In this document: piece after piece, positions 8,580 to 60,036 of the stretch
Layout of the letters: each line of letters begins with the position of its first letter
How positions within the stretch are numbered: position 1 is the stretch's first letter
Virus record (IMG/VR): IMGVR_UViG_3300027859_000009
Location: 16,535-80,534 of that record
Strand: one strand, 5' to 3'
Length of the DNA stretch: 64,000 nt
Source: a virus
Program-made: the position numbers and the translations under genes
Notes under the pieces: model-generated
Databases searched by the model: none
Told to the model about the DNA's origin: nothing
What the model saw: only the letters and a program-made list of their open reading frames with translations

Positions 8580-8611
8580 AAAGGGCTAAATGAAACATTT
8601 GGCCCTTTTTT
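8580..8611 (+). terminator. intrinsic terminator overlapping a class II promoter
   Basis: AAAGGGCTAAATG-AAA-CATTTGGCCCTTTTTT hairpin with U-tract. Confidence 0.75.
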
Positions 8612-8618
8612 CATATAA
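8593..8618 (+). promoter_or_regulatory. class II (putative middle) promoter AAAC-N17-TATAA upstream of gp55
   Basis: Same motif and 17-nt spacing at 10 intergenic sites. Confidence 0.65.
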
Positions 8619-8638
8619 TAAAGTAAAATATACAAATA

Positions 8639-9019
8639 ATGCCTAGAAAAAAGAATTATTTAAACAACAAAGACCTTAGAGAGCAAATAATAATTTCTTT
8701 AGAACAAGATGAATTAACTAGAGAAGCTCAAAAAATGCTACAATTATTGGCTGAAAAAACAATTAATAAATTAAGATATGCTAATGAGGATGATAGAAAG
8801 GATTGCCTTCAATTCGCTCTTTTAGACCTTTTAAAATATTGGAGAGGTTACAAGCCTCAATACCCAAATGCATTTGCATATTATACTGAAATAGCAAAAA
8901 GAGGTTATGCAAAAGGATGGAATAAACTTCATCCCCACAAATATAAAGGAACGCTTTCAATGGATAGAATTAATTCTAATGATAGCGATTCAGGAAATTC
9001 AGGAATGTTTAATATTTAA
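8639..9019 (+). CDS. gp55: late-transcription sigma factor (T4 gp55-like)
   Basis: NYLNNKDL N-terminus and NAFAYYTEIA motif typical of gp55. Confidence 0.82.
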   Translation: MPRKKNYLNNKDLREQIIISLEQDELTREAQKMLQLLAEKTINKLRYANEDDRKDCLQFALLDLLKYWRGYKPQYPNAFAYYTEIAKRGYAKGWNKLHPHKYKGTLSMDRINSNDSDSGNSGMFNI

Positions 9020-9020
9020 A

Positions 9021-9494
9021 ATGTCCATAAAAAATAATAAGCCTTCTGGCAATTCCAACTGGAATCAGGGTTATTATAACCCTGTATATCCCCAAAAATA
9101 CACTGGAAAAGGACCTATTATATATAGAAGCTCATGGGAGTTAAAATTTATGAAAATGTGCGATAATAGAGAAGATATTGTACTATGGTCAAGTGAACCG
9201 GTAGAAATAAAATATTGGAGTTCGCTTGACAATAAAGAACATTCATATTTTCCAGATTTTTATATCAAAGTTAAAAAAGATGAAAGTTTTGAAGAAACTT
9301 TGATAGAAATTAAACCAGAAGAGCAAATAAAAAAACCACAACCACCTACAAAAAATAGTAAACAAGCTCTTAAAAACTATAAATTTCTTGCAGAGCAGTT
9401 CATAAAAAATAGAGATAAATATAAATATGCACAAGAATGGGCAAAGTCAAGAGGCTGGAGATTTGTAGTCATGACAGAAAAAAGTCTTAAATAA
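9021..9494 (+). CDS. gp4: head completion nuclease (gp4-like, TnsA-type fold)
   Basis: QGYYNP..KY.G, YRSSWE, WSSE, YFPDF, EIKP motifs; start moved to ATG 9021. Confidence 0.85.
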   Translation: MSIKNNKPSGNSNWNQGYYNPVYPQKYTGKGPIIYRSSWELKFMKMCDNREDIVLWSSEPVEIKYWSSLDNKEHSYFPDFYIKVKKDESFEETLIEIKPEEQIKKPQPPTKNSKQALKNYKFLAEQFIKNRDKYKYAQEWAKSRGWRFVVMTEKSLK

Positions 9495-10084
9495 TGGGTC
9501 AAGTTAGAAACGATATAAAAAAACTAATTAAAGAAAATGGAAGTTTAGCTAAGGCTTCTTCTGCTTCTCAAGATTGGTTTGATGCTGGTAAAAAATCTGT
9601 AAATGAAAAAGGTGCAAGTTTTACCTCTAAAAGGTTTTTTCCAGGAAAAATATACATTTTTAGATATACGCCTTTAAATTCAAAAAATCTACCATGGTTT
9701 GATAAAAACCCAGTAGTTTTAGCTTTAGACCCTGCAGGTGCAAATGATGTTGGAATAAATTTAAACCTTTTACCAAAAGATGTAAAAGAAAATTTATTAG
9801 ATAAGGTATATAGTATGTTTGAGGCAGAAATTAAAAGTAATTCAGTAGGAGGTGCAGCAAATAACGTTAAAAGACAAAAGCATCTATCAATGACTTGGGA
9901 AAATATGAAAGGTTTTTTAAAAGGACCTGGATATGATTTTGCGTTAAGGCAATACATTGTTGGTAGAAAGTCTGCACAGGCATTTGTTAGTTATGAAAAC
10001 TGGGCAAAAATAGTATTATGTGATTTTGCAGATTTGCAAGGAACTTCGTATGCTGAATTAGAAAGGCTTTTTAAAAAGAAATAG
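9494..10084 (+). CDS. gp2: DNA end protector (gp2-like)
   Basis: PGKIYIFRY.P...LPWFDKNP.V, GINLNLLP, RQY motifs. Confidence 0.8.
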   Translation: MGQVRNDIKKLIKENGSLAKASSASQDWFDAGKKSVNEKGASFTSKRFFPGKIYIFRYTPLNSKNLPWFDKNPVVLALDPAGANDVGINLNLLPKDVKENLLDKVYSMFEAEIKSNSVGGAANNVKRQKHLSMTWENMKGFLKGPGYDFALRQYIVGRKSAQAFVSYENWAKIVLCDFADLQGTSYAELERLFKKK

Positions 10085-10123
10085 AATAAAAAGAATATAT
10101 AAATTGAAAAAGTATTAAAAATT

Positions 10124-11725: not shown

Positions 11726-11743
11726 AAAAAAGATATATAAAAC

Positions 11744-12130: not shown

Positions 12131-12176
12131 AAAATAAAATTTTATTAAAGATATATACAAAAAATAAGAAACAAAA

Positions 12177-14109: not shown

Positions 14110-14146
14110 ATGTTCCTAGAAAGATATATAATAAAAAACATCAGTT

Positions 14147-14439: not shown

Positions 14440-14447
14440 GATATATA
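14440..14447 (+). promoter_or_regulatory. class III (late) promoter GATATATA of the major capsid gene
   Basis: Same octamer at 6983, 11732, 12150, 14123, 16010, 23692, 28450, 30805, 32984, 46347, 48492, 50804, 53457, 54332, 54956, 55301, 60699, 62561; AATATATA variants at 10094 and 25948. Confidence 0.75.
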
Positions 14448-14533
14448 AAACATATTCGACGATTTGGCTAAAGAAGCAGAAAGCCATGTAAATAATGTCG
14501 AAAACTAAAACGCAAAAAAATAAATTTAACAAA

Positions 14534-15946
14534 ATGGCAAATTTAATTAACGAAGCGGAAATTAGAGATACATGGTCACCGATTATTGAATCGGCAACTG
14601 GTATCAAAGACGCTGAAAAATTATCATGGATGTCTGAGTACTGTCACAATCACAAACTTTACGAAGACGCAAACATCATGTCCCTTAACCCAGGAATGAA
14701 CTTAACAGGTATGGGTGCAGTAGCATTCCCATCAAACTTTGACGGTGCAGCTGACGGTTCAGGAGACAAAGCTCCAACTTTACTTCCTTTAGCGATGCAA
14801 GTTGCAGCTCAAACAATCGGATTAGACTTAGTACCAGTTGTACCAATGGCTGGACCTATGGGTCTTTTATCTTACCTAGACTTCGTATACGAAGGAGGTA
14901 CTTTAGGTGCTGGAGCTTCCGGTGCTGATGGTACTGTAGCACCTACATACATCAAATCAGGAGCAACTGCTGCTTCTACTGGTGATACTATCGTAGGTAC
15001 ATCTAGAATTGACGGAAAATCAATCATCAAAATTGGAGCAACAACTGAAGCTGCAGCACCAGTAACTAACACTTACGCTGACGCTGAATTAGTTGCTGCA
15101 TTAGACGACCATATCCCTGGTTTCGTTGGAAATGATGATGGAACTCCATACACTAGAGAAGTTGGTGAATCAACTCCGGACAGAGTTATGGGTCTTTCAT
15201 TGTTCAGTAAATCAGTAGACGCTAGAACTTATCAAGTTGCTGCTGCAGTTACTAGAGAGCAAGTACAAGATTTAAAACAATTCGGTGTAGATGCAGTTGC
15301 TCAAGTAGAGGCTGTATTAACTAACGAGCTTACTCAAACAATCAATGATTTAATTATCAATAACATCGATTCACTTGCTACTGCTAACATGGCAGCTGCT
15401 GGTATCGCTGGAAACTTAAACGTAGCTTTAACTCCTGTTGCATCTGCAGCTGGTGGTGCTACTGAAGGTTCACAACACAGAAAAGTATTAACAGGTATTC
15501 TTGCTGCTGCTAACTTAATTGCTAACAGAGGTAGAAGAGGTGCTGGTAACTTTGCTGTAGTTGGACCACAGGTTGCTACATTAATTCAATCGGTTTCAGG
15601 ATTTGTTCCTAACCCATTCGCTAACACGGCAAACCAATCAGCAGGTGCTATTTATCCTGTAGGTTCTGTTGCTGGTGTACAAGTTTATACTAACCCAAAA
15701 TGGAATTGGTCTTACAATGAAGTATTAGTTGGTAGAAAAGGAGACGGAAACGGACCTGGATTAGTATTCATGCCTTACTTAATGGCAGAATCAGTACAAA
15801 CAATTGCTGAAGGAACTATGGCTCCTAAAGTAGCTGTTAAGTCTAGATTCAGAATCGTTGAAGCTGGTTTCCACCCAGAAACACAATATGCAAAATTTGC
15901 AATTACTGTTGCTGGTGGTGGTACTGATTTAGTAAACATCGCTTAA
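14534..15946 (+). CDS. gp23: major capsid protein (gp23)
   Basis: LVPVVPMAGPMG, EQVQDLK, ELTQTIN, RGRRGAGNF, FMPY, KSRF motifs; strong codon bias; start ATG 14534 (MANLINEAE). Confidence 0.95.
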   Translation: MANLINEAEIRDTWSPIIESATGIKDAEKLSWMSEYCHNHKLYEDANIMSLNPGMNLTGMGAVAFPSNFDGAADGSGDKAPTLLPLAMQVAAQTIGLDLVPVVPMAGPMGLLSYLDFVYEGGTLGAGASGADGTVAPTYIKSGATAASTGDTIVGTSRIDGKSIIKIGATTEAAAPVTNTYADAELVAALDDHIPGFVGNDDGTPYTREVGESTPDRVMGLSLFSKSVDARTYQVAAAVTREQVQDLKQFGVDAVAQVEAVLTNELTQTINDLIINNIDSLATANMAAAGIAGNLNVALTPVASAAGGATEGSQHRKVLTGILAAANLIANRGRRGAGNFAVVGPQVATLIQSVSGFVPNPFANTANQSAGAIYPVGSVAGVQVYTNPKWNWSYNEVLVGRKGDGNGPGLVFMPYLMAESVQTIAEGTMAPKVAVKSRFRIVEAGFHPETQYAKFAITVAGGGTDLVNIA

Positions 15947-15971
15947 TAAACTTTTAATAGTTTTAAGATAT

Positions 15972-15997
15972 AAAGGGAAACGTAAGTTTCCCTTTTT
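15972..15997 (+). terminator. intrinsic terminator after the capsid gene
   Basis: AAAGGGAAAC-GTAA-GTTTCCCTTTTT. Confidence 0.88.
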
Positions 15998-16046
15998 CTG
16001 ATTTAAAAGGATATATACTATATTAATCTAAATAAAATTAACAAAA

Positions 16047-17072
16047 ATGAAAAGATTTTACCTAAAAGAAAATTTAAAAACATACAGTGAGTTTACATCA
16101 CTTAATGAAGAAATCAATATTGAAAACCAACAAGAAACCTCTATATCAGGTCAAGATATTGAGGGCGATGTCATAACTGGAGATAATCTTTCCGGTGAAA
16201 TTGATACCATCTTAGATAAATTAAAAGAATTAGAAGATGGAATAGAAGAAGAACTTGCGGTTAAATATTTAGGTCTTATAGAAGATAGAGACCTTTTTGA
16301 AGAAGAAGATGGCGCAATGGCCAAAATAAAAGATTTTGTATTTGTAGCACCTAAAGTTACAAAAATGCAGAAAAAAGCTAATAAAATTAGACTTAATAAA
16401 GAGGTCTTAGATATGACTGTACAAAATCCTGAAATAGATGGTAAGAAAAAGAAATCGTTAGAACAAAAAAGAGACGGACTTAAAGACCAACTTAAAGATT
16501 TAGAAAATGCAGTTACCCAATATCAAAAAGATAACGGTGGAAAATATTCTGCTAGAAAACTTGCTAAAACAAAAATTGAAGGTCAATTAGCAGCTATTAA
16601 GAAAAAGACTGGTATGTCAGATGACCCAAAACAGCAAAAGTCATTAGCACAAGATGCTAAAGAACTTGCAGTAAGATACAAAGAAGAAGTTGCAGCAACA
16701 AAAGAAATTGCAGATGCTGATAAGCCTTCACCGGAAGAAGTAGCTAAAGCTAAAGCTGATGAAATCAAAACTCAAAGAAAAGAACTTATCGATAAGAAAG
16801 AGTCTACTGATGATAAAAAAGCACAAGCAACTTTACAAGTAGAAATAGAAACACTTAACGTAAAAATAGCTGCATTAGAGAAAGAAGGTGAAGCAGAAGC
16901 TAAACAAGATTTAAAAGATGCTAAGGCAAAATTAGCAGAAATTGAATCTGGAGGAGCAGAAGCAGAAGCAGGAGCTGAAGGAGAAGCAGGAGCTGAAGGA
17001 GAAGCAGGAGCTAAAGGATATAATGAGTCTGAATTTGATGGTTCTGGTAGAAGTTTACCTATCGCAGAATAG
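16047..17072 (+). CDS. coiled-coil late protein, probable internal head protein
   Basis: LKTYSEFTSLNEE near N-terminus; K/E-rich; EAGAEG repeats; late motif at 16010. Confidence 0.55.
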   Translation: MKRFYLKENLKTYSEFTSLNEEINIENQQETSISGQDIEGDVITGDNLSGEIDTILDKLKELEDGIEEELAVKYLGLIEDRDLFEEEDGAMAKIKDFVFVAPKVTKMQKKANKIRLNKEVLDMTVQNPEIDGKKKKSLEQKRDGLKDQLKDLENAVTQYQKDNGGKYSARKLAKTKIEGQLAAIKKKTGMSDDPKQQKSLAQDAKELAVRYKEEVAATKEIADADKPSPEEVAKAKADEIKTQRKELIDKKESTDDKKAQATLQVEIETLNVKIAALEKEGEAEAKQDLKDAKAKLAEIESGGAEAEAGAEGEAGAEGEAGAKGYNESEFDGSGRSLPIAE

Positions 17073-18220: not shown

Positions 18221-18262
18221 CAGATTTTTTTATGTCGTTTATAATGATTATATTTATACTAT
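18221..18262 (+). promoter_or_regulatory. class I (putative early) promoter repeat
   Basis: CAGATTTTTTTATGTCGTTTAT-N6-TATATTTATACT. Confidence 0.8.
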
Positions 18263-18873: not shown

Positions 18874-18915
18874 CAGATTTTTTTATGTCGTTTATTTTTC
18901 TTATATTTATACTGT
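18874..18915 (+). promoter_or_regulatory. class I promoter repeat
   Basis: Same 42-bp motif. Confidence 0.8.
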
Positions 18916-20219: not shown

Positions 20220-20402
20220 ATGACTAAACAAGAAGCATTAAATGAAATAATGAAAGCAGTGGAATATAAAGTACCTGGATATGATAACACAGAATTAGTA
20301 AAGGCTATTCTAGGAGTTTTTGAAAAACAGGTAAGAATAGACCAGATAGAAAAAGACCGCGAAATGAGTATGAAAACCCTAAATATTACTAAAATTAAAT
20401 AA
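20220..20402 (+). CDS. hypothetical protein
   Basis: Small ORF with A-rich leader. Confidence 0.55.
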   Translation: MTKQEALNEIMKAVEYKVPGYDNTELVKAILGVFEKQVRIDQIEKDREMSMKTLNITKIK

Positions 20403-20426
20403 ACAAATCAAAGATTTTTTCTATAA
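20401..20426 (+). promoter_or_regulatory. class II promoter upstream of clamp loader
   Basis: AAAC-N17-TATAA. Confidence 0.65.
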
Positions 20427-21406: not shown

Positions 21407-22635
21407 TGAAAAAAGGAGGACATACACTATTAATAGATGGCAATTATTTTTTGCACAGCAGACTTTTTGTTCTTCCAAGACCATCTAGTGGTAAAATGAT
21501 GGAAGATGAAGAATCAAGAGCCAATCTTATGCGCAAATTAGCGATAGACTTAGCATCCGAAGTAAGAAAGATGAGAGACTTTATAGATAAAGTTGTAGTA
21601 ACAGTAGATGCTAGAAGTTGGCGCAAAGACCTATTCCCACAAGCAGAATATAAAGGTACTAGAAAGCAAGATTCTAAAATAGATTGGACTGGCGTATATG
21701 GAATTTATGAAGAATTTCAAGCTATTTTACAAAAGCACGGTGTTATTGTACATAGAATAGACGGCGCAGAAGCAGATGATGTTCTTTTTGGTTGGTCAAC
21801 TTACTTAAACAATAAAGGTAAAAATTGTATAATATGGACAGGTGATAGAGACCTTATTCAATTAGTAAATTATTCAATACCAAATGATGCATACACACTA
21901 TGGTATTCAAGTGCTCATAAAAGTTTATATACTTTTCCTAACTTTGAAGAAGTTATTAATAGGAAAGAAGATATAGATAAAAATGACATGTTATTTAATA
22001 TGAGTCACTATAAAGGTCTTTCTCAAGAATCTAGACACTCTCTTAAATTATGGATGGAAAATAATAAAGTAAAATTAACTGAAGTAGATTGTGACGAGTT
22101 TTTATTTAAAAAAATACTTGTAGGTGACAGTGGTGATAACATACCATCTGTTATTACTTGGCAAAAAGTAATGAAGAATGGTAAATTAAGAACTTATTCT
22201 ATTACAGATAAAATGGCAGATAAAATATATGCTCAGTTTACAAAAGAATCAGATGGATTTGTTGTAGATACCTTATTTGTAAAAAGCGAATTAGAAAGAA
22301 TGGCTGATGTTGTTTATAGGGTAGTAGGTAGAGAATCTGCAAAGATTATATCTAACAGGATATTTGATAATATGTCTCTAATGATGCTTCACTCTAGAGT
22401 AATACCTGAACCTATTCAGAACGAAATATACAAAGCAGTAGAAAATGAATTTTCTTTGCTAGATAGAATGGACCTATCTAAGTTAACAAACAAAGATAAA
22501 ATATTAGAAAATACAAAATGGTTAGATATTAAAAAATCTAAAAAAGCAGATATTTTCTCTAATTTAGATATAGAAGATAACCAGCCTAAAAAATTAAAAT
22601 TAATAAATAAGAATAACAAAAATAAATTGTTCTAA
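21403..22635 (+). CDS. rnh: 5'-3' exonuclease / T4 RNase H
   Basis: LIDGN, YKGTR, EADD, TGDRD, GDSGDNIP motifs. Confidence 0.88.
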   Translation: MMKKGGHTLLIDGNYFLHSRLFVLPRPSSGKMMEDEESRANLMRKLAIDLASEVRKMRDFIDKVVVTVDARSWRKDLFPQAEYKGTRKQDSKIDWTGVYGIYEEFQAILQKHGVIVHRIDGAEADDVLFGWSTYLNNKGKNCIIWTGDRDLIQLVNYSIPNDAYTLWYSSAHKSLYTFPNFEEVINRKEDIDKNDMLFNMSHYKGLSQESRHSLKLWMENNKVKLTEVDCDEFLFKKILVGDSGDNIPSVITWQKVMKNGKLRTYSITDKMADKIYAQFTKESDGFVVDTLFVKSELERMADVVYRVVGRESAKIISNRIFDNMSLMMLHSRVIPEPIQNEIYKAVENEFSLLDRMDLSKLTNKDKILENTKWLDIKKSKKADIFSNLDIEDNQPKKLKLINKNNKNKLF

Positions 22636-23060: not shown

Positions 23061-23700
23061 CTATCTTTTTCCTGAAATTGTAGCTATAACTCTACAAAAA
23101 CATAATTCAATAGACAATAAAATTTACACTCTTATAAAAAATAAAGGGTGTTTTACTAAACATGCTAATACTATTTTAGTAAAAAGCGAAGAATTATATT
23201 CCATTCTTAAAGAAAATTATGAATTAGAATTAGAAAAATTAAATACTATTTCTAATAAAAACCTATATAAAGGAGCAACTACAATTTACTTTCTTAATAA
23301 ATTCATGAAAGACATGAAAAACTTAAGATGGTTTCAAATCACTTTATGTAAAAATATATCTTATAGTAGAATTAGTAGCAATCATCAGCCAGATGAAGAA
23401 AAAACTTTAAATTTTGATTTTAAAGTAATAAGAGGAAGTTTTAGAACTTTTGATTTATTTAAAGAAGAATTATTACCATCGGTTAATAAAATTTTAAAAC
23501 TAGTAGGATGTGTTAACAAATCACACTACGCTGTAGTAAAACTAAAAAATTTAGAAAATAGAATTTTAAATTTTAAAGAATCTTCCAATGACTTAACAGA
23601 AGAAGAAAATAGTATATGTAGTACTTTAATCTATCATTTTTCAGAATGGTCAGATGATAATCCACAAACACTTATAGTCACAGATTTCTTAGATATATAG
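23053..23700 (+). CDS. hypothetical protein
   Basis: 215-aa coupled ORF. Confidence 0.6.
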   Translation: MANYLFPEIVAITLQKHNSIDNKIYTLIKNKGCFTKHANTILVKSEELYSILKENYELELEKLNTISNKNLYKGATTIYFLNKFMKDMKNLRWFQITLCKNISYSRISSNHQPDEEKTLNFDFKVIRGSFRTFDLFKEELLPSVNKILKLVGCVNKSHYAVVKLKNLENRILNFKESSNDLTEEENSICSTLIYHFSEWSDDNPQTLIVTDFLDI

Positions 23701-28429: not shown

Positions 28430-28489
28430 AATAATTCCCATAATTCTTAGATATATACTTTAACAAACTAAAAAAAAATAATTTCAATT

Positions 28490-30785: not shown

Positions 30786-30840
30786 AAATTTTAAAAAAGA
30801 ATTAGATATATAAAACATAAATAAAAATAAAAATAAAGAA

Positions 30841-31476: not shown

Positions 31477-31680
31477 ATGTCCAACAAAAAAGATTATTTA
31501 GTAGATAAGTTAATTAAAAAAATTCAAGTTTTATTAACAGAGCCGGAGTTTGAGGAGTTAAATAATATTATTTTAAGCGAAGCACTTCAAAATAAACAAA
31601 GACCTAGGTCTGTAAGTGCTTTTGTTAGAGAACTTGTTAAAAAAGAAATAAAAAGAATCGAAGATTCTGAAACAAAATAA
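31477..31680 (+). CDS. ribbon-helix-helix-like DNA-binding protein
   Basis: KKIQVLLT..E....L...SVSAFVRELV pattern. Confidence 0.5.
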   Translation: MSNKKDYLVDKLIKKIQVLLTEPEFEELNNIILSEALQNKQRPRSVSAFVRELVKKEIKRIEDSETK

Positions 31681-31695
31681 ATTAAATTTATATAA
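31670..31695 (+). promoter_or_regulatory. class II promoter
   Basis: AAAC-N17-TATAA. Confidence 0.6.
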
Positions 31696-32982: not shown

Positions 32983-33010
32983 AGATATATAATAAAAATA
33001 CTTAAGTTAG

Positions 33011-36000: not shown

Positions 36001-37363
36001 AGGTATGGGTGGTGTAATATCAGAATTAGGTTCTGGTTTAAAAGACTTTTCTACACTTAAATTTCCAATTTACAAAGGTACTAAAGTAGTAGGATATACC
36101 ACTCTTACTAGTCAGACTATGGGTAAGACGACTGACAATATCGTATATATGATAGAATCTCTCATGAATGGTTTTGCTAAGATAGGAGATAAATACGGTT
36201 CTTGGCCAGGTACTAGAAGTTCAGTACAACAAGGTGTACAAGCTGCGCAGGGCGCAGGATTTGAAGTTGCAATGTTGGCTATAGGTTTAAAGTCAATGGC
36301 TATGTTAAGATTCCCAATTTATAAAGGTAAGAGAATTGTAGGTTATGAATCTCTTACGGGAGATGGTATAGAAAAAGTAGCAAGAAATATTTATATGATG
36401 ATATCCTCTCCTTTAGATGCTTTCGGTAGGATTGGTAAAAAATATGGTGGAGAAGTCGTTAGTTTTATGGGAGTTAGAAGCGGAGATGGAGGAGACGTAG
36501 GTAAAGGTATTCTAGCCGCAAAAGAATTACCTAAAGGATTAGGAACAGTAATGGGTTCTATTTTGGGAGTAGTAAGTCATAAAAACTTTAAAGAAGTTGT
36601 AAAAGCAACACCTATAGTTTCTAAAATGGTTACTATGATAGGAGAATCATTTGAACCACTTGCTAAAGCAGGCCCTGATGGCATTATGGCTTCTGCAAAT
36701 GCAGTTAAATATTATTTTGAGCAGTTTGCAACTATAGAAACTCCAATCAAAAATTGGTTAAAGTTATCAGATAATTATAGAACTATGCAACTAACAAATA
36801 GATATTTTGCAGGTATCGCTCGCTCAACTAAAGAAATTGGAGAAACTCCAGTATTTGGTGCAATGATGCTTTCTAGATTAACTAAAACCCTACAAGATAG
36901 AAAATTAATGAAAACTGCCTTAGCAATGACACATATTGCAAATGCTTATAAAAAAATACAGGTATCTTCTACTGAAATGGAAATTGAGGCTTTAGAAAAG
37001 TCAACAGAGATGTTTAAAGCACTTTCTTATCTTACTGAACAGGGAGGTGAAACTGCAATAGAGGCATTAGGAGATAATTTAATTGAAGCTGTAAAAGAAT
37101 TAGCATCAATGATAGCTAATTTTGAACAGACTGTTGGTGACGCTAAAGACCAGAATGCTGATGTTGCTGAAAAAATGGAAAATACAGGAAGCATATTTGA
37201 TAGAGTAGCAGCAGTATTTTCAGATAATCCTGCAACACCAATAGGTCAGCCAACTCCTTCAGCTGATCCTTCACCATCTTCATCTTCTGGAGATATGCAA
37301 GAGTTAATAGATATATTGACTAGTGGTGACGCAATAGTTCAAGTACAAAAGACTTTTGATTAA
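33011..37363 (+). CDS. tape measure protein
   Basis: 1450 aa, TTG start, A/G-rich helical with many hydrophobic segments and repeated (L/M)(K/R)FP.Y units; follows tube and chaperone genes. Confidence 0.75.
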   Translation: MARPFSSPFEKLSVDNQKVLIEQLSPGGELFSLFEEILNQLQSTDDRQQKDEAKTKVSLFSGLTIKEALAWKLLGEKGLQSIGKGLGAIAEVIDKMTTAGKEVKERIEGIAMGIETVFGIAPKILKFAFTMVLALPLLMLAVVAVPFIGLLLLGTLAIMGILSKVAEKQKGMYESLALLGDVGAAILKFGGYLALSALVYPIALLGMIVVIPTLLIMLAALTLIGRLVDPKSMEKYKGLEEVGKAILLFGGYLALSLLIYPFAILATPMVLGVIVGFAVVFALLDRFGFVKSVNKAGKALKQVGIAILVLGAALFIFGLIFPPTVETFQTLGFVMLVLVGISAAMWLVGKMYKKMRKGAIGLALTGLAILVLGYALKKFEESLPANPWEFFAELGVALVGLGVIMYGYGSQWKSIAKGALVLAGSGLALALMGYGISEIGEALNSTGDAWMFMAELGVFLVGMGVMAAGWGAAVMLIGPGLLAMGGAGVALKSVSWGLEGFIPIFKGSEWKSMVGEHHKSKGILGMGGGSVSNFQALMEAVGYSFIWNPVSVAGILGGAAALGAAGLALKPLAKGINDMIPIFKGKGWKEMVETKGNPKAGGILGFGATEQTNIQLLISSIANSFKLGFGVINVGAGAGAMAIVGKSLSKLAVGLNDFMKYKISKTIAKNIASMVDAVAGTFGEIGKEYGGAGFFGLGAGPLYDGIEATMGMGDALTSIAKGMAAVAELRFPTYGDPKNPGKITEYITLDKGKMRDVSANVADMVDALASAFGEVGKRYPNKPASGLWGFFGGTENPVKTGLSSVSGMGSALGGIAQGMQDFSTLKFHKYDDPTNPEKITATIDLTQGDVLSEVTANIVSMIDSLATGFAQIGIRYPKVKKKGWFGITYSTNGPVGVGIEQSSGMGAIVAAIGQGMRDFSEMKFPVYDGTKVVEYIDLTKGNALKKVTSNITEMVLSLAGGFAEVARRFPRKKYKTWWGATRYAPDGTVGEGVKQASGMGGVISELGSGLKDFSTLKFPIYKGTKVVGYTTLTSQTMGKTTDNIVYMIESLMNGFAKIGDKYGSWPGTRSSVQQGVQAAQGAGFEVAMLAIGLKSMAMLRFPIYKGKRIVGYESLTGDGIEKVARNIYMMISSPLDAFGRIGKKYGGEVVSFMGVRSGDGGDVGKGILAAKELPKGLGTVMGSILGVVSHKNFKEVVKATPIVSKMVTMIGESFEPLAKAGPDGIMASANAVKYYFEQFATIETPIKNWLKLSDNYRTMQLTNRYFAGIARSTKEIGETPVFGAMMLSRLTKTLQDRKLMKTALAMTHIANAYKKIQVSSTEMEIEALEKSTEMFKALSYLTEQGGETAIEALGDNLIEAVKELASMIANFEQTVGDAKDQNADVAEKMENTGSIFDRVAAVFSDNPATPIGQPTPSADPSPSSSSGDMQELIDILTSGDAIVQVQKTFD

Positions 37364-37387
37364 ACTTTTTAATTTTATCTTATATAA
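37362..37387 (+). promoter_or_regulatory. class II promoter
   Basis: AAAC-N17-TATAA. Confidence 0.6.
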
Positions 37388-37940: not shown

Positions 37941-37982
37941 CAGATTTTTTTATGTCGTTTATTATTGTTATATTTATACTAT
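37941..37982 (+). promoter_or_regulatory. class I promoter repeat
   Basis: Same 42-bp motif. Confidence 0.8.
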
Positions 37983-39404: not shown

Positions 39405-39445
39405 CAGATTTTTTTATGTCGTTTATTTTTATTATATTTAACTAT
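39405..39445 (+). promoter_or_regulatory. class I promoter repeat upstream of ligase
   Basis: Same motif. Confidence 0.8.
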
Positions 39446-41960: not shown

Positions 41961-42003
41961 CAGATTTTTTTATGTCGTTTATTATGATTATATTTATACT
42001 ATA
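41961..42003 (+). promoter_or_regulatory. class I promoter repeat upstream of the NAD+ operon
   Basis: Same motif. Confidence 0.8.
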
Positions 42004-44426: not shown

Positions 44427-44455
44427 AGCAGAGTGAAACTATTCACTCTGCTTTT
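44427..44455 (+). terminator. intrinsic terminator overlapping a class II promoter (AAAC at 44436)
   Basis: AGCAGAGTGAA-ACTA-TTCACTCTGCTTTT. Confidence 0.8.
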
Positions 44456-44466
44456 ATATTAAAAGT

Positions 44467-44730: not shown

Positions 44731-44989
44731 AGATAGTAGAATTTTAATGGTATTTCTTTTATTCCTTTTAGGTTTAATTCTTTTAGCATCTTGTGGAACT
44801 AAAGTAATTACAATAAAAGAGCAATTTCCAGTAACTTTTAAATATGAACTAGAGATTCCCCACCATAACTTAAATAATGAGTGTTTTCCTGAAAAAACCA
44901 TAACATTTTTATGTAAAGATACCATTAAATTAGAATATGAATATGTTAGAAATTTTAAAAGATATATAAGGAGAAATGGCAAAAAATAA
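44702..44989 (+). CDS. putative lipoprotein
   Basis: Hydrophobic signal ending in lipobox LASC. Confidence 0.55.
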   Translation: MKSLEKMWDRDSRILMVFLLFLLGLILLASCGTKVITIKEQFPVTFKYELEIPHHNLNNECFPEKTITFLCKDTIKLEYEYVRNFKRYIRRNGKK

Positions 44990-45840: not shown

Positions 45841-45866
45841 AAACTTTTTTTATTTTTTTAATATAA
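45841..45866 (+). promoter_or_regulatory. class II promoter
   Basis: AAAC-N17-TATAA. Confidence 0.6.
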
Positions 45867-45871
45867 CATAC

Positions 45872-46345: not shown

Positions 46346-46378
46346 AGATATATAATTAACACCCTAAAATTTATATAA

Positions 46379-47485: not shown

Positions 47486-47528
47486 CAGGATTTTTTTATG
47501 TCGTTTATTTTTCTTATATTTATACTAT
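47486..47528 (+). promoter_or_regulatory. class I promoter repeat upstream of ECF sigma
   Basis: GGATTTTTTTATGTCGTTTATTTTTCTTATATTTATACT. Confidence 0.8.
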
Positions 47529-47553: not shown

Positions 47554-48153
47554 ATGAAACAATTAACTTACAGAGAATTAGGAGAAAACTTCTACAACAC
47601 CCGATCAGAAAAAGACTATAATAAGCTTTATTTAAGAGTAAAACCAGGTCTTAAAAATTATATATTTAAAGTAGTAAAAGACAGTGAAGTTGCTGAAGAT
47701 TTACTATCTAATACTCTTGTAAAATTGTGGACTAAAATAGACCAATACAATCCAGAGTGGCAAATAACTACTTGGTTGTATAAAATTGCGTTTAACGAAT
47801 CTCTTGCATATATCAGAGAAAGAAATAAAAAGTCTTCTCTAGATGGAATGCGAGATGCTGGAGTTCAGCTATCAAGTAGTGGCGTAGTTAATGATTCTCT
47901 TTCTAGCTTAATAGAAAGCTTTGAACAAAAAACCGAAGAAGACTTTATTATGGAAGATGAAGAAATCATGAACCAATATCATAGTGCTCTTAAAGCAATT
48001 GATAATTTAAAGCCAATGTATAAAGGTATTATGGAAGACCGTCTTATTAAAAATATGAAATACGAAGATATTGCAGATAAGCATAAAGTCAATCTACAAA
48101 CTGTTAAGAACAGAATTAGACGTGGTAAGGTATTAATCTCAGAAAATATTTAA
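47554..48153 (+). CDS. RNA polymerase ECF-type sigma-70 factor
   Basis: Region 2 AEDL....VKLW......TTWLYKIA.N; region 4 L...Y......MKYEDIA......TVKNRIRRG. Confidence 0.9.
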   Translation: MKQLTYRELGENFYNTRSEKDYNKLYLRVKPGLKNYIFKVVKDSEVAEDLLSNTLVKLWTKIDQYNPEWQITTWLYKIAFNESLAYIRERNKKSSLDGMRDAGVQLSSSGVVNDSLSSLIESFEQKTEEDFIMEDEEIMNQYHSALKAIDNLKPMYKGIMEDRLIKNMKYEDIADKHKVNLQTVKNRIRRGKVLISENI

Positions 48154-48155: not shown

Positions 48156-48341
48156 ATGGATAAAGATTTAACAGAAAAAGAAGTAGAGATGTTAGTAAGA
48201 TTAAATTCTAGAGCTTTAAAGATAGTTAAAATAGAAGAACATTTCTTAAAAAATAAATTAAGAATAGATACCAAATATCTAGATACACTTACAACAAAAG
48301 AAATAGATAACATAATAAATACGCACTGCATTGAAAAATAG
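48156..48341 (+). CDS. hypothetical protein
   Basis: Small ORF directly after sigma. Confidence 0.5.
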   Translation: MDKDLTEKEVEMLVRLNSRALKIVKIEEHFLKNKLRIDTKYLDTLTTKEIDNIINTHCIEK

Positions 48342-48513
48342 TAAAAGTATAAAAATAACCTATTATGGCTCAGGAGAAATATCCATGATAGAGGTTCCTA
48401 CTTTAACACAGCACTCTTTAGAATTTTATATGGAACAATATCAAAGAAATAGAGAAGCTTTTAAGTGGGAAATTGTAGAAGATAATAAAAAGATATATAA
48501 AAAAACAAAGTAA
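48331..48513 (+). CDS. hypothetical protein
   Basis: Small ORF, TTG start. Confidence 0.45.
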   Translation: MKNSKSIKITYYGSGEISMIEVPTLTQHSLEFYMEQYQRNREAFKWEIVEDNKKIYKKTK

Positions 48514-48518: not shown

Positions 48519-48830
48519 ATGGAAGAAAAAGAACATATATTAGATACTATTCTGAATAAAGTAGGAGATTCATTGACTGAAGGAGTTGAGATTTTTTTAG
48601 CTAGAGACCCTGAAGATAATGAAGTTTTAGCAATTCAAACAAAAGATTGGCAAAAAGGTCTTTCAATAGATCAGCTAGTTAATAGTTATGGAAGTTTTAG
48701 AATATACACTGCAGATTCAGAAGAAGATGCTATCGAACAATTAGTAGAAAGCATTAAATTATCGATAGAAAACATGTTAAAAGAAGAACTTCCTTCTGAT
48801 GAAGATAAAACAGAGGAAGACAAAAGTTAA
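48519..48830 (+). CDS. acidic hypothetical protein
   Basis: Late motif at 48492. Confidence 0.6.
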   Translation: MEEKEHILDTILNKVGDSLTEGVEIFLARDPEDNEVLAIQTKDWQKGLSIDQLVNSYGSFRIYTADSEEDAIEQLVESIKLSIENMLKEELPSDEDKTEEDKS

Positions 48831-48946: not shown

Positions 48947-48972
48947 AAACAAAATACAAAAAAATTATATAA
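48947..48972 (+). promoter_or_regulatory. class II promoter
   Basis: AAAC-N17-TATAA. Confidence 0.6.
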
Positions 48973-50799: not shown

Positions 50800-50833
50800 A
50801 ATAGATATATAAATTATTAAAAAAAATAGAACT

Positions 50834-52156: not shown

Positions 52157-53048
52157 TGTAATTTTAAAATTTGGAAGCACTGGAGAACTAGTAGGTATAT
52201 TACAGGGAATCTTAAATATTACTGTAGATAATCACTTTGGTAAATTAACACATGTCGCAGTTACAAAATTCCAAAAATCAAAAAATTTAGTAGCAGATGG
52301 TATTGTAGGACCTCTTACATGGAAAACATTAGGATATAGTCCTTTAGAATTTGAACTAGATACTGATAGGTCTACTTACGAGAACTGGATTGAAAAATAC
52401 CACCTTCCTAAAGGAGAATATATTCATAAAATAACTAATAAAGAATGGATAATGCTTCACCATACTGCAGGTAGAGAAAACCCGTATAGAACAGTAGATG
52501 GCTGGGCAAGAGATAGTAGAGGTAGAGTAGGCACCAATTACGTTATCGGAGGAGTATCTACTAATGGAAAAAATACAAAAGATGATGGAAGAGTTTTAAG
52601 AGCGATAGATGACGAATATTTTGGTTGGCATATAGGTAACGGAGGAATTTATGCTCTTAAAGAAAAGTCTTTAAGTATAGAAGTTTGTAGTGCTGGTGGA
52701 TTAAAACAAAAAAATGGAAAATGGTATACTTGGTTTAAAGAAGAAGTAGACCCTAGTCAAGTATGTATTTTAGATGAACCGTTTAGAGGATATAAGGCAT
52801 TTCATAAATATTCAGAAGAACAAATAAAGTCATTAAAAGCTCTTTTAATATTCCTAGGAGAAAAACATGGTATCGATATAAAACAAGGAATGTCAGCAAT
52901 GCTTCATTCAAACGTTAATGCATTTGAATGGAACAAAGGAGTATGTGAAGGTAAAATAAAAGGAATCATAAATCATACAAATATCAGAAAAGATAAAAGT
53001 GACATGTTTCCACAGCCAGAACTTATAGAAATGCTATTAAGTCTTTGA
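52143..53048 (+). CDS. endolysin: peptidoglycan-binding domain plus N-acetylmuramoyl-L-alanine amidase
   Basis: FQ....L.ADGIVGP.TW; LHHTAG, WH, SIEVC, H...RKDKSD. Confidence 0.9.
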   Translation: MSSNNVILKFGSTGELVGILQGILNITVDNHFGKLTHVAVTKFQKSKNLVADGIVGPLTWKTLGYSPLEFELDTDRSTYENWIEKYHLPKGEYIHKITNKEWIMLHHTAGRENPYRTVDGWARDSRGRVGTNYVIGGVSTNGKNTKDDGRVLRAIDDEYFGWHIGNGGIYALKEKSLSIEVCSAGGLKQKNGKWYTWFKEEVDPSQVCILDEPFRGYKAFHKYSEEQIKSLKALLIFLGEKHGIDIKQGMSAMLHSNVNAFEWNKGVCEGKIKGIINHTNIRKDKSDMFPQPELIEMLLSL

Positions 53049-53073
53049 AACTAATTAAATAAACCTTATATAA
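53048..53073 (+). promoter_or_regulatory. class II promoter
   Basis: AAAC-N17-TATAA. Confidence 0.6.
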
Positions 53074-53078
53074 TATTT

Positions 53079-53273
53079 ATGGAAAATAAAGAAATGACAT
53101 TACAGGAAGCAGTAAGAGTTCTACATCAAGTTGCAGAATTAGCTCAAAAAGCTGGAATACTTTCGATGCAGGATGCAGCATTAACATTTAGCGCAGTAAA
53201 TATAACTACTAAAGAAATATTGACAGAACTGAATACTGACAAAAAAAGTGACGAGGCGATAGCTGAAGCATGA
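53079..53273 (+). CDS. hypothetical protein
   Basis: A..VL.Q.AE.AQK.G.L...DA. Confidence 0.6.
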   Translation: MENKEMTLQEAVRVLHQVAELAQKAGILSMQDAALTFSAVNITTKEILTELNTDKKSDEAIAEA

Positions 53274-53467
53274 ACCAGGAAGTTAAAGAAATATTAGATA
53301 AGATTCAAGTTCTTAAAAAAGAGCTTGAATCTATTCAGAAAAAATGTACTCATGAAGAATATTCAGTCGAGTTAATAGATGGTAGTTTAATAAGGATATG
53401 TCGCTTCTGTAAAAAAAATATAGGATACGCAAACCAAGAAGACTTAGAAGGATCTGGATATATATAA
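53270..53467 (+). CDS. small zinc-binding-like protein
   Basis: C.H...C..C. Confidence 0.55.
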   Translation: MNQEVKEILDKIQVLKKELESIQKKCTHEEYSVELIDGSLIRICRFCKKNIGYANQEDLEGSGYI

Positions 53468-54071: not shown

Positions 54072-54340
54072 CAGATTCATTAATTTATGGCTTTTTTGCA
54101 GCCTTTCTTTTAATATTTTTAAATTATACAGTTCTTAAAATATACAAGCAATTTCCAACTTATGGAATTGCACTTGTATGGGGAAGCTTAGGTGTAAAAC
54201 TTTTATTTATTTCTGCGTTTACAATTTTAATACAAGTTTCTATTAAAGAGCCTATAATTTATGCTTTTACTATTTTAGCGGGTATATTATTTTCAAATGT
54301 TCAAACTTTATTAACTTTAAAGAAAAACGGTGATATATAA
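54068..54340 (+). CDS. three-TM membrane protein
   Basis: Hydrophobic throughout. Confidence 0.55.
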   Translation: MTDSLIYGFFAAFLLIFLNYTVLKIYKQFPTYGIALVWGSLGVKLLFISAFTILIQVSIKEPIIYAFTILAGILFSNVQTLLTLKKNGDI

Positions 54341-54934: not shown

Positions 54935-54994
54935 AGAAACTTTCTGAAATTCTTTGATATATAAATTAATAAACCCTAAAAACATTTATTAAAG

Positions 54995-55165
54995 ATGGAC
55001 AGAATTTCAGAAGCCAAAACTTCTGAAATGAAACCAATTCAACCTCAAGAGGAGTTTGAAAAAACCTTACAACAGGAAGATATTTTCAGTATCTTCTTAA
55101 GCGAAGGTACAGATGATGAATCAGATGATGAAATGTTTCTTTTCGGAGTAGGTGGCCCAGCTTAA
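54995..55165 (+). CDS. small acidic protein (56 aa)
   Basis: Hand-translated MDRISEAKTS...DDESDDEMFLFGVGGPA; own promoter (54937-54963) and terminator. Confidence 0.6.
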   Translation: MDRISEAKTSEMKPIQPQEEFEKTLQQEDIFSIFLSEGTDDESDDEMFLFGVGGPA

Positions 55166-55249: not shown

Positions 55250-55308
55250 CAGATTTTTTTATGTCGTTTTTTATTCTTATATTTATAGTATATTAAAAAC
55301 GATATATA
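55250..55308 (+). promoter_or_regulatory. tandem class I and class III promoters upstream of CCA-adding enzyme
   Basis: CAGATTTTTTTATGTCG...TATATTTATA followed by GATATATA at 55301. Confidence 0.75.
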
Positions 55309-57490: not shown

Positions 57491-57530
57491 TGTAAAACTT
57501 TTTTTAATCTGGTGCGAAAATAATTCACAC

Positions 57531-57573
57531 CAGATTTTTTTATGTCGTTTATTTTTCTTATATTTATACTATA
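57531..57573 (+). promoter_or_regulatory. class I promoter repeat with upstream inverted repeat
   Basis: Motif preceded by AATCTGGTG...CACCAGATT. Confidence 0.8.
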
Positions 57574-58188: not shown

Positions 58189-58205
58189 ATTGTTAATAAC
58201 TTTTT

Positions 58206-58273
58206 AATCTGGAGTGAAAATAAATCACTCCAGATTTTTTTATATCGTTTATTATGATTATATTTATACTGTA
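58206..58273 (+). promoter_or_regulatory. class I promoter repeat with perfect 12-bp inverted repeat
   Basis: AATCTGGAGTGA-AAATAAA-TCACTCCAGATT then TTTTTATATCG...TATATTTATACT. Confidence 0.8.
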
Positions 58274-58817: not shown

Positions 58818-58854
58818 TAACATTGTTCATAACTTGTTCATAACTTTATGGCAC

Positions 58855-58897
58855 CAGATTTTTATTTATCGCATATAATAGTTATATTTATACTGTA
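58855..58897 (+). promoter_or_regulatory. degenerate class I promoter repeat
   Basis: CAGATTTTTATTTATCG...TATATTTATACTGTAGTTAATT. Confidence 0.7.
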
Positions 58898-58934
58898 GTT
58901 AATTAATAATAATAACCTTTAAAACACGTAAAAA

Positions 58935-59252
58935 ATGGAAAATTCAACAAATTACTTCGATCAAAAACAACCAACTTTAATCGCTCAACTAGGGCCAGAA
59001 AAAGAGGTGGTATATACTAACAAGTCTTTTACTGAGATAGAGGCTATCATAGAACCTTTTAGAATAGCCAATCCTGAAATGGGTTGTGGAATCAAAACTC
59101 CAAAAGGAAATAGCTGGGTCGGATTAGTTACTTGGGCTGATCAGATGGAAATGTTCTGGGAGTACCCAACATATACTCCAGAAGGAGACAGACTTGCGGC
59201 GCTTCGTAAAGCAGAGCAGGATGCTAAAGGAATATTAGCATCTTGGGGATAA
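58935..59252 (+). CDS. hypothetical early protein
   Basis: Follows class I promoter. Confidence 0.6.
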   Translation: MENSTNYFDQKQPTLIAQLGPEKEVVYTNKSFTEIEAIIEPFRIANPEMGCGIKTPKGNSWVGLVTWADQMEMFWEYPTYTPEGDRLAALRKAEQDAKGILASWG

Positions 59253-59280
59253 TCAATTAATAACCCTTAAAAACAAAAAA

Positions 59281-59508
59281 ATGAAAAATTTTAACTTTAA
59301 AGAAATGATAAACATCTTCAAAACCTTATGCATGTTTGGACTTATTGCCTTTGTTAGCATTTGGATAACATATACATTGATTTCATTCATTGTATGGTAT
59401 TTTACTATGATGTTCTTATACCCTACAACTGCATTAATAGTTTTGATTTTAGGCTGTCTTGCATTCGCTGGAATAACTAAAGCATTAGAAATTTATAATA
59501 ATTTATAA
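59281..59508 (+). CDS. two-TM membrane protein
   Basis: Hydrophobic. Confidence 0.55.
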   Translation: MKNFNFKEMINIFKTLCMFGLIAFVSIWITYTLISFIVWYFTMMFLYPTTALIVLILGCLAFAGITKALEIYNNL

Positions 59509-59524
59509 TAACAAATAAAAACAA

Positions 59525-60007
59525 ATGAAAAAAAGATTAGAACAAAGAATGTACGGATTGGTGCCTTATAACCTTAGTCCAATCCAACAAGGAATTCAAT
59601 TTGGACATGCTGTAGTAGAATATAGTTTAAACCATTATTCTTACACTGAACAAAAAGGTTCGAACCCATATAGTCAATGGGCGCACTATGATAAAACATT
59701 TATTATCCTGAACGGTGGAACCACAAACAATAACGCAGAACATTGGGGTACTCTTAATCAAGCAGTCTTAGAACTTGGAAGACTAAGAGTTGAAAAGGCA
59801 ACTTTCAATGAACCAGACCTTGGAGACCAATTAACTGCCGTAGTATTTTTAGTAGATGAGCGGGTTTGGGACAAAGAGAAATATCCAGAGTATAACCCTC
59901 ACCATACTGATTTGGAACCTTGGGATTATTATGATTTAGTTTTCGGAGAAGATGCCAAGCATATATTAGAAATGAGAGATTTCCTTTCTAAATACAAACT
60001 AGCCTAA
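59525..60007 (+). CDS. peptidyl-tRNA hydrolase Pth2-like protein
   Basis: MY..V..NLS..Q..IQ.GHA...W....K..I.L...F.EPDL..Q.TAV. Confidence 0.6.
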   Translation: MKKRLEQRMYGLVPYNLSPIQQGIQFGHAVVEYSLNHYSYTEQKGSNPYSQWAHYDKTFIILNGGTTNNNAEHWGTLNQAVLELGRLRVEKATFNEPDLGDQLTAVVFLVDERVWDKEKYPEYNPHHTDLEPWDYYDLVFGEDAKHILEMRDFLSKYKLA

Positions 60008-60010
60008 TAG

Positions 60011-60036
60011 AAACATTTTAAAAAACTGCAATATAA
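60011..60036 (+). promoter_or_regulatory. class II promoter
   Basis: AAAC-N17-TATAA. Confidence 0.6.

Follow-up and report, generated by a model that had tools for sequence, protein, structure and literature searches.

A stretch of 64,000 nucleotides (nt), referred to here as the window, comprises bases 16535-80534 of the 80.5-kb IMG/VR virus contig IMGVR_UViG_3300027859_000009. It carries three conserved classes of promoter-like motif, all of them strand-specific, located before genes and more frequent than chance, together with two phage sigma factor genes. One encodes an extracytoplasmic function (ECF)-type sigma factor of 199 amino acids (aa) (47554..48153, + strand) and the other a protein of 126 aa that resembles gp55, the late sigma factor of phage T4 (8639..9019, + strand). 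Each sigma gene stands behind the promoter type of the preceding tier, class I before 47554 and class II before 8639. The wiring, in which class I leads to the ECF-type sigma gene, class II to gp55 and the replication genes and class III to the virion genes, is conserved. On balance, the arrangement is probably a three-step sigma relay in an uncultured T4-related jumbo phage of marine origin.

The first step of the proposed relay would be carried out by the host RNA polymerase and its primary sigma factor, which would start at the class I cassettes and yield the small accessory gene products, the ligase, the NAD-salvage enzymes and the phage ECF-type sigma. This sigma would then direct the host core polymerase to the two-box class II promoters, the targets of which would be the two DNA polymerase halves, the UvsX-helicase-SbcCD operon, the clamp loader, nucleotide enzymes, Hc1 and the gp55-like gene. 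In the third step the gp55-like protein would read a lone octamer, GATATATA, before the virion and lysis genes. We infer the order of the three classes in time from the sequence.

The phage and its probable host

The contig is about 28% complete and belongs to a genome of an estimated 290 kb or so (both CheckV). Its DNA is about 30% G+C, all genes lie on the + strand and intergenic DNA makes up 5.6% of the length. T4-type structural genes are present for the portal, prohead protease, major head protein, terminase, sheath, tube and gp4-like and gp2-like proteins, and T4-type replication genes for the clamp loader gp44, UvsX, a DnaB-like helicase and SbcCD-like gp46/47. No GenBank phage was matched in a megablast of 25 kb, and relatives were traced via proteins. 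The portal is closest to that of the uncultured huge phage LR756500 (57% aa identity), followed by other huge phages, PAU and the Lak phages. The term T4-like, used in a first-pass annotation of this DNA, is correct in the wide sense only.

Among the relatives, Lak phages infect Prevotella and PTm1 infects Tenacibaculum, and others are phages of Chryseobacterium and Flavobacterium. The host of PAU has been reclassified as Sphingobacterium (PMC4621102). Shine-Dalgarno (SD)-like motifs precede 7% of the starts on the contig and 15% of random positions, and the leaders are 58% A; low SD use and A-rich leaders are the pattern described for Bacteroidota (PMC6847099). Because the relatives infect Bacteroidota, SD motifs are few and leaders are A-rich, the host of this T4-related jumbo phage is probably a member of the Bacteroidota.

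The middle-type (class II) promoters

The class II motif, AAAC-N17-TATAA, matches 14 times in the window, with 3.3 matches expected, and none of 100 shuffles reaches 14. The whole contig has 18 sites on the + strand at spacing 17, 0-4 sites at the other spacings from 8 to 26, and one site at spacing 17 on the - strand. AAAC is the sole tetramer enriched 17 nt upstream of TATAA (18 versus 2.25, P = 4e-11). Enrichment over background, proposed at the outset as the test of this class, is thus seen both against shuffled sequences and as a peak at a single spacing. Of the 18 sites in the contig, fifteen lie between genes and have their TATAA 5-25 nt from the ATG that follows; those at 4155, 21807 and 41851 fall inside genes, at a frequency that chance explains. 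When 7-mers enriched in upstream regions were sought with no prior choice of motif, all three classes came out again.

Class II is equally evident in relatives. There are 36 sites in a 205-kb relative that is 75% complete (G001; 6.6 expected, P = 1e-15), 22 in LR756500 (7.4 expected) and 31 in PAU (8.9 expected), where the consensus is cTGAAAC-N17-TATAAT. Over 44 sites from the contig and G001 the consensus is [G/T]AAAC[A/T][A/T]..-(A)TATAA(T). The base before TATAA is A in 37 of the 44; conservation is confined to the boxes, and the spacers vary freely. Orthologues of gmk retain the boxes and their spacing over diverged spacers. The exact AAAC-N17-TATAA is found in all 39 distinct upstream regions of gp55 orthologues (gp55 identity 70-97%); the stem of a hairpin at this place shows compensatory changes across the 39 relatives, and the boxes and spacing stay fixed.

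The hairpin belongs to the terminator of the gene upstream. The class II promoter of gp55 (8575..8618, +; AAAC at 8593, TATAA at 8614) has its -35 box, GAAAC, in the loop of this hairpin (-16.7 kcal/mol), and the terminator insulates the gp55 gene from upstream transcription. GAAAC lies in the loop of the preceding terminator also in the TATTA variant before 44467 (44436..44461, +; module 44428-44461) and at one site upstream of the window. In such sites the 3' arm of the hairpin and the T-run fill the 17-nt spacer, so that terminator and promoter form a one-piece module. Twelve of the class II sites in PAU belong to hairpin cassettes that are almost the same in sequence and carry the -35 box in the loop (e.g. 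PAU 35745-35810). The possibility that class II is an artefact of hairpin loops of the GNRA type was considered and rejected, as only 2 of 18 sites in the contig and 1 of 36 in G001 are embedded in hairpins.

The remaining class II sites of the window, all on the + strand, precede the operon of clamp loader gp44 (20441) and 5'-3' exonuclease (21403; site 20401..20426), a 339-aa protein of unassigned function at 31716 (31670..31695), a KTSC-domain protein at 37409 (37362..37387), gmk at 45872 (45841..45866), the Hc1 histone-like gene at 48998 (48947..48972), the gene at 53079 (53048..53073), the genes at 60042/60175, with a weak SLT-like match (60011..60036), and, as a TATAT variant that overlaps the class III site at 54956, the gene at 54995 (54937..54962). 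The ten coordinates given in the first-pass annotation, the variants at 44436 and 54937 among them, are all correct, and so are the identities of gp55, the clamp loader and exonuclease, gmk and Hc1. Two sites had been omitted. One precedes a 122-aa protein at 8191 (8158..8183, +). The other (15948..15973, +), directly after the capsid gene and before a terminator, is a class II-like site of doubtful function. It is a perfect match, followed within 3 nt by a terminator hairpin (GGGAAACGTAAGTTTCCC and a T-run) and then by a class III site (window 15948-16017). The arrangement could be a chance match, give a very short transcript or be regulatory.

In the 16.5 kb upstream of the window, one class II site precedes a nucleoside triphosphate pyrophosphatase gene and then the N-terminal half of DNA polymerase, and another precedes the operon that runs from the C-terminal half through UvsX and helicase to SbcCD. 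The ribonucleotide reductase genes lie in the same block. Two genes some 5 kb from each other (contig 8630-10036 and 15235-16440) encode the split family-B polymerase, and the reductase genes and one gene with a late promoter are found between them. The polymerase of PTm1 is also split and bears an intein.

At 5 of the 15 intergenic class II sites in the contig and at 13 of 29 in G001, TATAA ends 5-6 nt before the ATG (TATAAtNNNcATG). Examples are window 45841-45874 and 53048-53081, where the distance is 5 nt, 60011-60044 and the site at window coordinate -14302. The short distance suggests leaderless mRNAs. It is found at none of the PAU class II sites, and only about 5.5% of Flavobacterium mRNAs are leaderless (PMC9723704).

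The ECF-type sigma factor

The gene at 47554 had been called an ECF sigma gene, and the call is sound. Region 2 spans residues 25-91 (Pfam PF04542, Sigma70_r2, 1.7e-11) and region 4.2 residues 146-192 (PF08281, Sigma70_r4_2, 2.9e-6); there is no other domain, and the protein falls into PHROG 1740. It scores 67.7 bits with the NCBIfam model TIGR02937 (sigma70-ECF, cut-off 42.9). The best subfamily model is TIGR02985 (Sig70_bacteroi1), with 83.9 bits, under its cut-off of 126.4. The nearest solved structure is SigW (5wuq), and the profile aligns with the whole length of SigW, SigH and SigE chains.

Orthologues were found at 93, 71, 59, 57, 55 and 37% identity. In the four groups at 93 to 57% the gene follows a class-I-type cassette, and an imperfect AAAC-N18/19 element lies upstream of it only in the 55% and 37% relatives. 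The N-terminus, MKQLTYRELGE, was compared with the capsid-targeting peptide of T4, MKTYQEFIAE. A targeting function was rejected, as the Glu is not conserved in the orthologues and the gene has no late promoter.

A reader of class II would have to contact the -35 and -10 boxes at a fixed spacing, as a sigma factor with a sigma-4 domain does. No Sigma70_r2 gene other than the ECF-type one was found in G001 or in the other large contigs of the lineage. A second sigma of the type of gp1 of PAU (discussed below) was found in the lineage neither by tblastn and jackhmmer nor by two IMG/VR scans or Pfam searches of six large contigs, all lineage genomes being incomplete. Promoters of ECF sigmas have AAC at -35 and CGT at -10 (PMC8103513). 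As the ECF-type gene is the only one seen in the lineage and class II has a -35 box of the AAC type, the ECF-type sigma is, by elimination, the rather probable reader of class II. In the cascade that the first-pass annotation proposed, this link is made by elimination; the promoter classes, the sigma genes and their conserved wiring stand, and the pairing of gp55 with class III is well supported.

The late-type (class III) promoters and the gp55-like protein

In the window the octamer GATATATA occurs 20 times (expected 5.0) and always on the + strand. The motif and the genes behind it are as first described, with a count of 20 in place of 19. Of the 25 sites in the contig, 23 lie at most 60 nt upstream of an open reading frame (ORF) start, and no conserved -35 box accompanies them. 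G001 has 43 copies on the + strand and 5 on the - strand.

As had been claimed, the sites stand mainly before structural and lysis genes. They precede a virion structural-like gene at 7014 (6983..6990), the prohead protease at 12177 (12150..12157), the major head protein at 14495 (14440..14447), the head closure-like genes at 23720/23982 (23692..23699), the tail sheath at 28490 (28450..28457), the tail tube at 30841 (30805..30812) and, at 50834, the block leading to the endolysin at 52143 (50804..50811). Another (32984..32991) precedes a 1450-aa repeat protein at 33011, which has no family match and which we take to be tape-measure-like. Sites also precede a polynucleotide kinase-like gene at 54347 (54332..54339), the gene of a 597-aa protein at 60730 (60699..60706), and the genes at 11744 (11732..11739), 14147 (14123..14130), 16047 (16010..16017), 44976 (44961..44968), 46379 (46347..46354), 48519 (48492..48499), 53479 (53457..53464), 54995 (54956..54963) and 62589 (62561..62568). 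The last one (55301..55308) lies 4 nt before the gene of the CCA-adding enzyme at 55313, downstream of a class I cassette. All are on the + strand.

The gp55-like protein has a sigma region-2-like domain only. It matches PHROG 234, 'late sigma transcription factor' (E = 9e-6), and the annotated late sigma of Xoo-sp13 (tblastn, 2e-8). Orthologues occur in Lak, PAU, PTm1 and Xoo-sp13 and give weak Sigma70_r2 matches. An AlphaFold model built on 13 orthologues has four helices and a mean predicted local distance difference test (pLDDT) score of 77. Its top Foldseek match in the PDB is 7d7c_F, the gp55 of the T4 late open complex (probability 1.00, TM score 0.67, E = 0.017), followed by region 2 structures of sigma-E; a sequence-profile search of the PDB with the family gave no match. 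The PHROG assignment and the predicted fold bear out the identification of gp55 at 8639.

The late motif is GATATATA in the contig and G001 and TATACATA in PAU and PTm1, the gp55-like proteins of which are only about 30% identical to that of the contig. Class II is the same in the contig and PAU, and the late motif differs. Because the late motif changes with the gp55 lineage, the predicted fold is that of T4 gp55 and the octamer stands alone, the gp55-like protein very probably reads class III, by analogy with T4 and by covariation. A role of gp55 in reading class II, considered because both motifs have a TATA-like -10 box, was rejected: class II does not change with the gp55 lineage, and gp55 itself lies behind a terminator and a class II promoter.

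Immediately downstream of gp55 is a gp4-like head completion gene (9022-9494), with an N-terminal Pfam match to a TnsA-like endonuclease (5e-19), the usual fold of the family. The ORF can also be called longer (8907-9494), in overlap with the end of gp55; its start is probably the ATG at 9022.

The early-type (class I) cassettes

The 17-nt head of class I, CAGATTTTTTTATGTCG, has 10 matches in the window at up to 3 mismatches, all on the + strand, where 0.6 are expected. This is the number first reported, and dinucleotide shuffles never reach it. An 11th copy lies upstream of the window on the same contig. The copies can be aligned over about 90 nt, and about 42-90 nt are nearly identical among them, the spacer included.

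The small accessory genes, the ligase, the NAD+ operon and the ECF sigma gene all have a copy before them, as described in the first pass. On the + strand, cassettes precede the ECF-type sigma gene at 47554 (47487..47528; the layout is the same in relatives), a 188-aa protein of unassigned function at 18284 (18221..18262), a small ORF at 18937 (18874..18915), small ORFs at 38001 (37941..37982), the ATP-dependent DNA ligase at 39472 (39405..39445), the phosphoribosyl pyrophosphate synthetase-like and NAMPT genes at 42017/42892 (41961..42002) and the CCA-adding enzyme at 55313 (55250..55291, the class III site at 55301 coming next). A diverged copy precedes 58935 (58855..58896). Two further copies, before 57597 (57503..57572; fold -18.5 kcal/mol) and before 58308 (58203..58272; fold -20.8 kcal/mol), include a complete upstream terminator hairpin (AATCTGGTG...CACCAGATTTTTTT). 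In these two the head 'CAGATTTTTTT' is the 3' arm and T-run of the full hairpin. The remaining copies retain only the 3' arm and the T-run.

The class I core in the contig is TTTT-N19-TATATTTA. The primary sigma of Bacteroidota reads TTTG and TAnnTTTG (the -33 and -7 boxes) and not a -10 box of the TATAAT type (PMC9723704). The core is in register with these two boxes, the Bacteroidota consensus being TTTG-N19-TAnnTTTG. The cassettes before the sigma orthologues of the four groups at 93 to 57% identity have in common the core TTATATT(T/A)(A/G) with a T-run 19-20 nt before it; everything else in them is lineage-specific. Core and T-run spacing are common to three lineages, those of the contig, G001 and IMGVR_UViG_3300024346_000014 (G002), and the upstream halves differ: TTTATGTCG in the contig, TTTCACGGGTC in G001 and an inverted repeat, TTACACA...TGTGTAA, in G002. 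A core common to lineages that differ upstream, two of which exchange genes, fits a shared host polymerase. It is thus reasonably probable, as far as the register and the shared core can tell, that the host primary sigma reads class I.

G002 is a distinct T4-related phage (portal 40% and terminase 39% identical to those of the contig). Its ligase is 88% identical and its small ORFs are 74-87% identical at the aa level, which points to recent gene exchange and probably to hosts drawn from one pool. G002 contains some 20 early-type cassettes, in which the inverted repeat occupies the -35 region, and three Sigma70_r2 genes, one of them behind a class-I-type promoter. G001 contains a hybrid early cassette (112170-112260), in which a head of the window type, 'GATTTTTTTATGTC', is joined to a tail of the G001 type, as expected if cassettes recombine between lineages.

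Weighing the relay against alternatives

A number of observations speak against the relay as set out above. The linker between sigma-2 and sigma-4 in the ECF-type protein is about 54 residues long (92-145, from Pfam envelopes with imprecise ends), and ECF sigmas have linkers of fewer than 50 (PMC8103513). The -10 box of class II is TATAA(T) and not the CGT typical of ECF targets (PMC8103513; PMC9723704). No anti-sigma partner was recognisable by eye in the downstream ORFs (48156-48341, 48331-48513 and 48519-48830), which have no transmembrane or zinc-binding anti-sigma features; 48519 is without a family match. The sigma gene is not autoregulated, having class I and not class II upstream, also in the relatives at 93-57%. 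PAU has class II despite having no ECF-type sigma (profile E > 1); gp1, the one sigma-like protein with two domains that it encodes, is unrelated. In PTm1 a gp1-type protein occurs and class II shows no peak; in Lak both families occur and the peak is at spacing 18. Since the combinations differ among PAU, PTm1 and Lak, a small and deeply diverged sample, no sigma family cleanly tracks class II. Further sigma genes may exist outside the contig, which holds about 28% of the genome. In this same fraction no gp33 or gp45 homologue was found among the ORFs scanned, which include 23053-23700 and 22635-23060 beside the clamp loader. Finally, the canonical host promoter, TTTG-N18-20-TAnnTTTG, is not enriched in the contig, G001, PAU, Lak or LR756500. 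PTm1 shows a clear peak, with 9, 11 and 15 sites at spacings 18-20, and class I is therefore only a near match to a host promoter.

The alternative that survives best, which we consider unlikely, keeps the three classes and their order and has class II read by another phage sigma encoded outside the fragment, for example a group-3-like one or one of the PAU gp1 type. The ECF-type sigma would then control a smaller or a different set of genes. PAU, with class II and a gp1-type protein and no ECF-type sigma, is as this explanation predicts, and several sigma factors in one phage are found elsewhere: both families occur in Lak, and sigma-region-2 genes number four in LR756500 and three in G002. 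However, neither a gp1-type gene nor any other additional Sigma70_r2 gene was found in G001, 75% complete, or in five contigs of the lineage (77-126 kb), and PTm1 shows that the gp1 family does not track class II.

The gp1 protein of PAU (94-1182, 362 aa) has a sigma-70 region-2-like and a region-4-like part, with Pfam scores (22.4 and 17.1 bits) that narrowly miss the cut-offs. In GenBank it is annotated as an 'internal capsid vertex protein'. At its end the PAU record has both a class II site and a late TTATACATAT motif; should the two ends of the record join, both would be upstream of gp1. As PAU lacks both canonical host promoters and an ECF-type sigma, a virion-packaged sigma factor is conceivable in this phage. 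Kinship between the ECF-type and gp1-type families was rejected, since profile-profile comparison shows nothing beyond the helix-turn-helix.

It is rather improbable that class II is read by a host sigma factor, be it the primary sigma, redirected in the manner of MotA and AsiA by phage proteins that escaped recognition, or an alternative ECF sigma of the host that the phage turns on. Conservation of class II across phages with differing sigma sets (the contig, LR756500 and PAU) would be explained in this way, and GAAAC resembles the -35 boxes of cellular ECF sigmas, that of Bacillus SigW being TGAAAC. Against this, no match to AsiA (PF09010) or MotA (PF09158, MotCF) was found in the contig or G001, both incomplete and searched with no positive control. 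PTm1, also a phage of Bacteroidota, is without class II, a stress-gated host sigma seems a fragile choice for replication genes, and the Bacteroidota primary sigma, as described above, reads no TATAAT-type -10 box (PMC9723704).

Two further readings bear on the host primary sigma. The clade formed by the contig lineage, LR756500, Lak and PAU may have abandoned canonical host-sigma promoters altogether. Sigma factors for all tiers would be of phage origin, carried in or newly made, and the host primary sigma would have hardly any role or none; the middle promoter would be fused, as a single stop-and-restart signal, into the loop of the terminator before it, and many middle transcripts would be leaderless. 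The idea, to which we give little credence, comes from the lack of the PTm1-type TTTG-N19-TAnnTTTG peak throughout the clade and from the annotation of PAU gp1 as an internal capsid protein.

In the second reading, still a shade less credible, the long lineage-specific part of class I is the site of a phage-specific or injected factor, which would free even the first step from the host primary sigma, or class I has been conserved mainly by spreading as a mobile terminator-promoter cassette. The promoter early stem-loop elements (PeSLs) of T4-like phages are a precedent for mobile cassettes of this kind (PMC2839356, PMC4122927). The near identity over 42-90 nt, spacer included, the lineage-specific upstream halves and the hybrid copy in G001 all favour it, as do the absence of the canonical promoters that PTm1 uses and, for an injected factor, the annotation of PAU gp1. 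It is contradicted by the core, TATATTTA or TATATTAG, which with its T-run 19-20 nt upstream keeps the -33/-7 register in three lineages (PMC9723704). An injected ECF-type sigma is further contradicted by its N-terminus, which has no conserved protease site for capsid targeting, and by the lack of the late promoter that a packaged protein needs.

That the motifs are not promoters at all, but terminator loops, translation signals, recombination or packaging sites or artefacts of AT composition, is very improbable: the DNA is 30% G+C, the motifs are AT-rich and the GAAAC at gp55 is also a GNRA-like loop, but shuffles preserving dinucleotides never reach the observed counts, a single-spacing peak, strand specificity and a fixed distance to the start codon are not effects of composition, few class II sites are embedded in hairpins, the boxes are conserved over diverged spacers, and the classes sort by gene function.

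Comparison with known systems

The proposed relay is an SPO1-like logic on a T4-like chassis. In SPO1 the host sigma-A is followed by gp28 and then by gp33/gp34, and each sigma gene stands behind a promoter of the tier before it. The published account describes the same logic, in which the host core polymerase is re-targeted by phage sigma factors (PMC13401047). SPO1 has no kinship with the present phage in lineage, host phylum, sigma proteins or promoter sequences, and the relay proposed here is read from sequence. The last tier also differs, being a T4 gp55-type single-domain factor here and the gp33/gp34 pair in SPO1.

With T4 the phage shares the structural and replication core, the gp55 homologue and, for the late tier, a lone AT-rich octamer at -10. 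T4 uses sigma-70 for its early genes, MotA/AsiA for its middle genes and gp55-gp33-gp45 on TATAAATA for its late genes. The middle promoters described here have instead a -35-type box at a strict 17 nt, where T4 has a MotA box at -30, and the phage has an ECF-type sigma gene; gp33 and gp45 are not identified in the fragment. The gp55 of T4 is 185 aa long, and the gp55-like protein 126 aa. Replication genes and gene 55 belong to the middle tier in T4 (PMC2988020, PMC2988021), and the same tier would hold them here.

In phages phiEco32 and 7-11 a small phage sigma, a distant relative of sigma-70, directs the host core to AT-rich middle and late promoters with the experimentally determined consensus TAATGTATA (PMC4331800). 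Unlike the present phage, these are enterobacterial podoviruses with one phage sigma and an anti-sigma, a single element of the extended -10 type and no gp55 tier. Sinorhizobium phage PhiM9 and Rhizobium phage P10VF, of the T4 superfamily, have both gp55 and an RpoE-like ECF sigma, a combination their authors call unusual for phages (PMC4621102). The host of PhiM9 is alphaproteobacterial, and its sigma is near the host RpoE and was proposed as a possible late sigma that replaces gp33/gp55 function; no promoter classes or wiring were described (PMC4621102).

The PeSLs of T4-like phages are dispersed, nearly identical cassettes of an early promoter and a stem-loop terminator that flank small variable genes (PMC2839356, PMC4122927). 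The class I cassettes have the same make-up and location, and two copies keep the whole hairpin. The sequences are unrelated, and of most class I copies only the 3' arm and T-run are left. In PAU an analogous cassette is made from a class II promoter, with its -35 box in the hairpin loop. Surveys have recorded that Lak and jumbo 'group 2' phages possess sigma genes, with no account of promoter classes or wiring (PMC6784885, PMC7824862), and a paper of 2025 on large aquatic phages of Bacteroidota mentions no more than a dependence on host transcription (PMC12619734). No published description of this three-class sigma relay was found in the literature.

Other features of the window

Two repeats lie apart from the promoters. 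Between 63763 and 63937 a 9-nt periodic repeat, GGT CCT NNN, occurs in 14 overlapping copies and encodes a collagen-like Gly-X-Y stretch in an ORF that runs off the end of the window. Between 40773 and 41293 the junction ATAAACCAAAAC(T/A)(G/A)AGATGAGTAAA recurs between very small ORFs.

Implications

T4 is the textbook phage that re-targets the host polymerase without a sigma factor for its middle genes. If the relay is true, a sizeable group of T4-related phages of Bacteroidota, marine and gut, that is common worldwide inserts an ECF-type sigma between the host sigma and gp55. The sigma-promoter pairs would then be orthogonal expression parts for Bacteroidota, whose transcription signals are out of the ordinary and for which few such parts exist. 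With PAU, the counterexample, one can test clearly which of the two is conserved, the specificity of the promoter or the identity of the sigma. The promoter classes offer a way to sort hundreds of unassigned genes of uncultured phages into early, middle and late groups from their upstream DNA.

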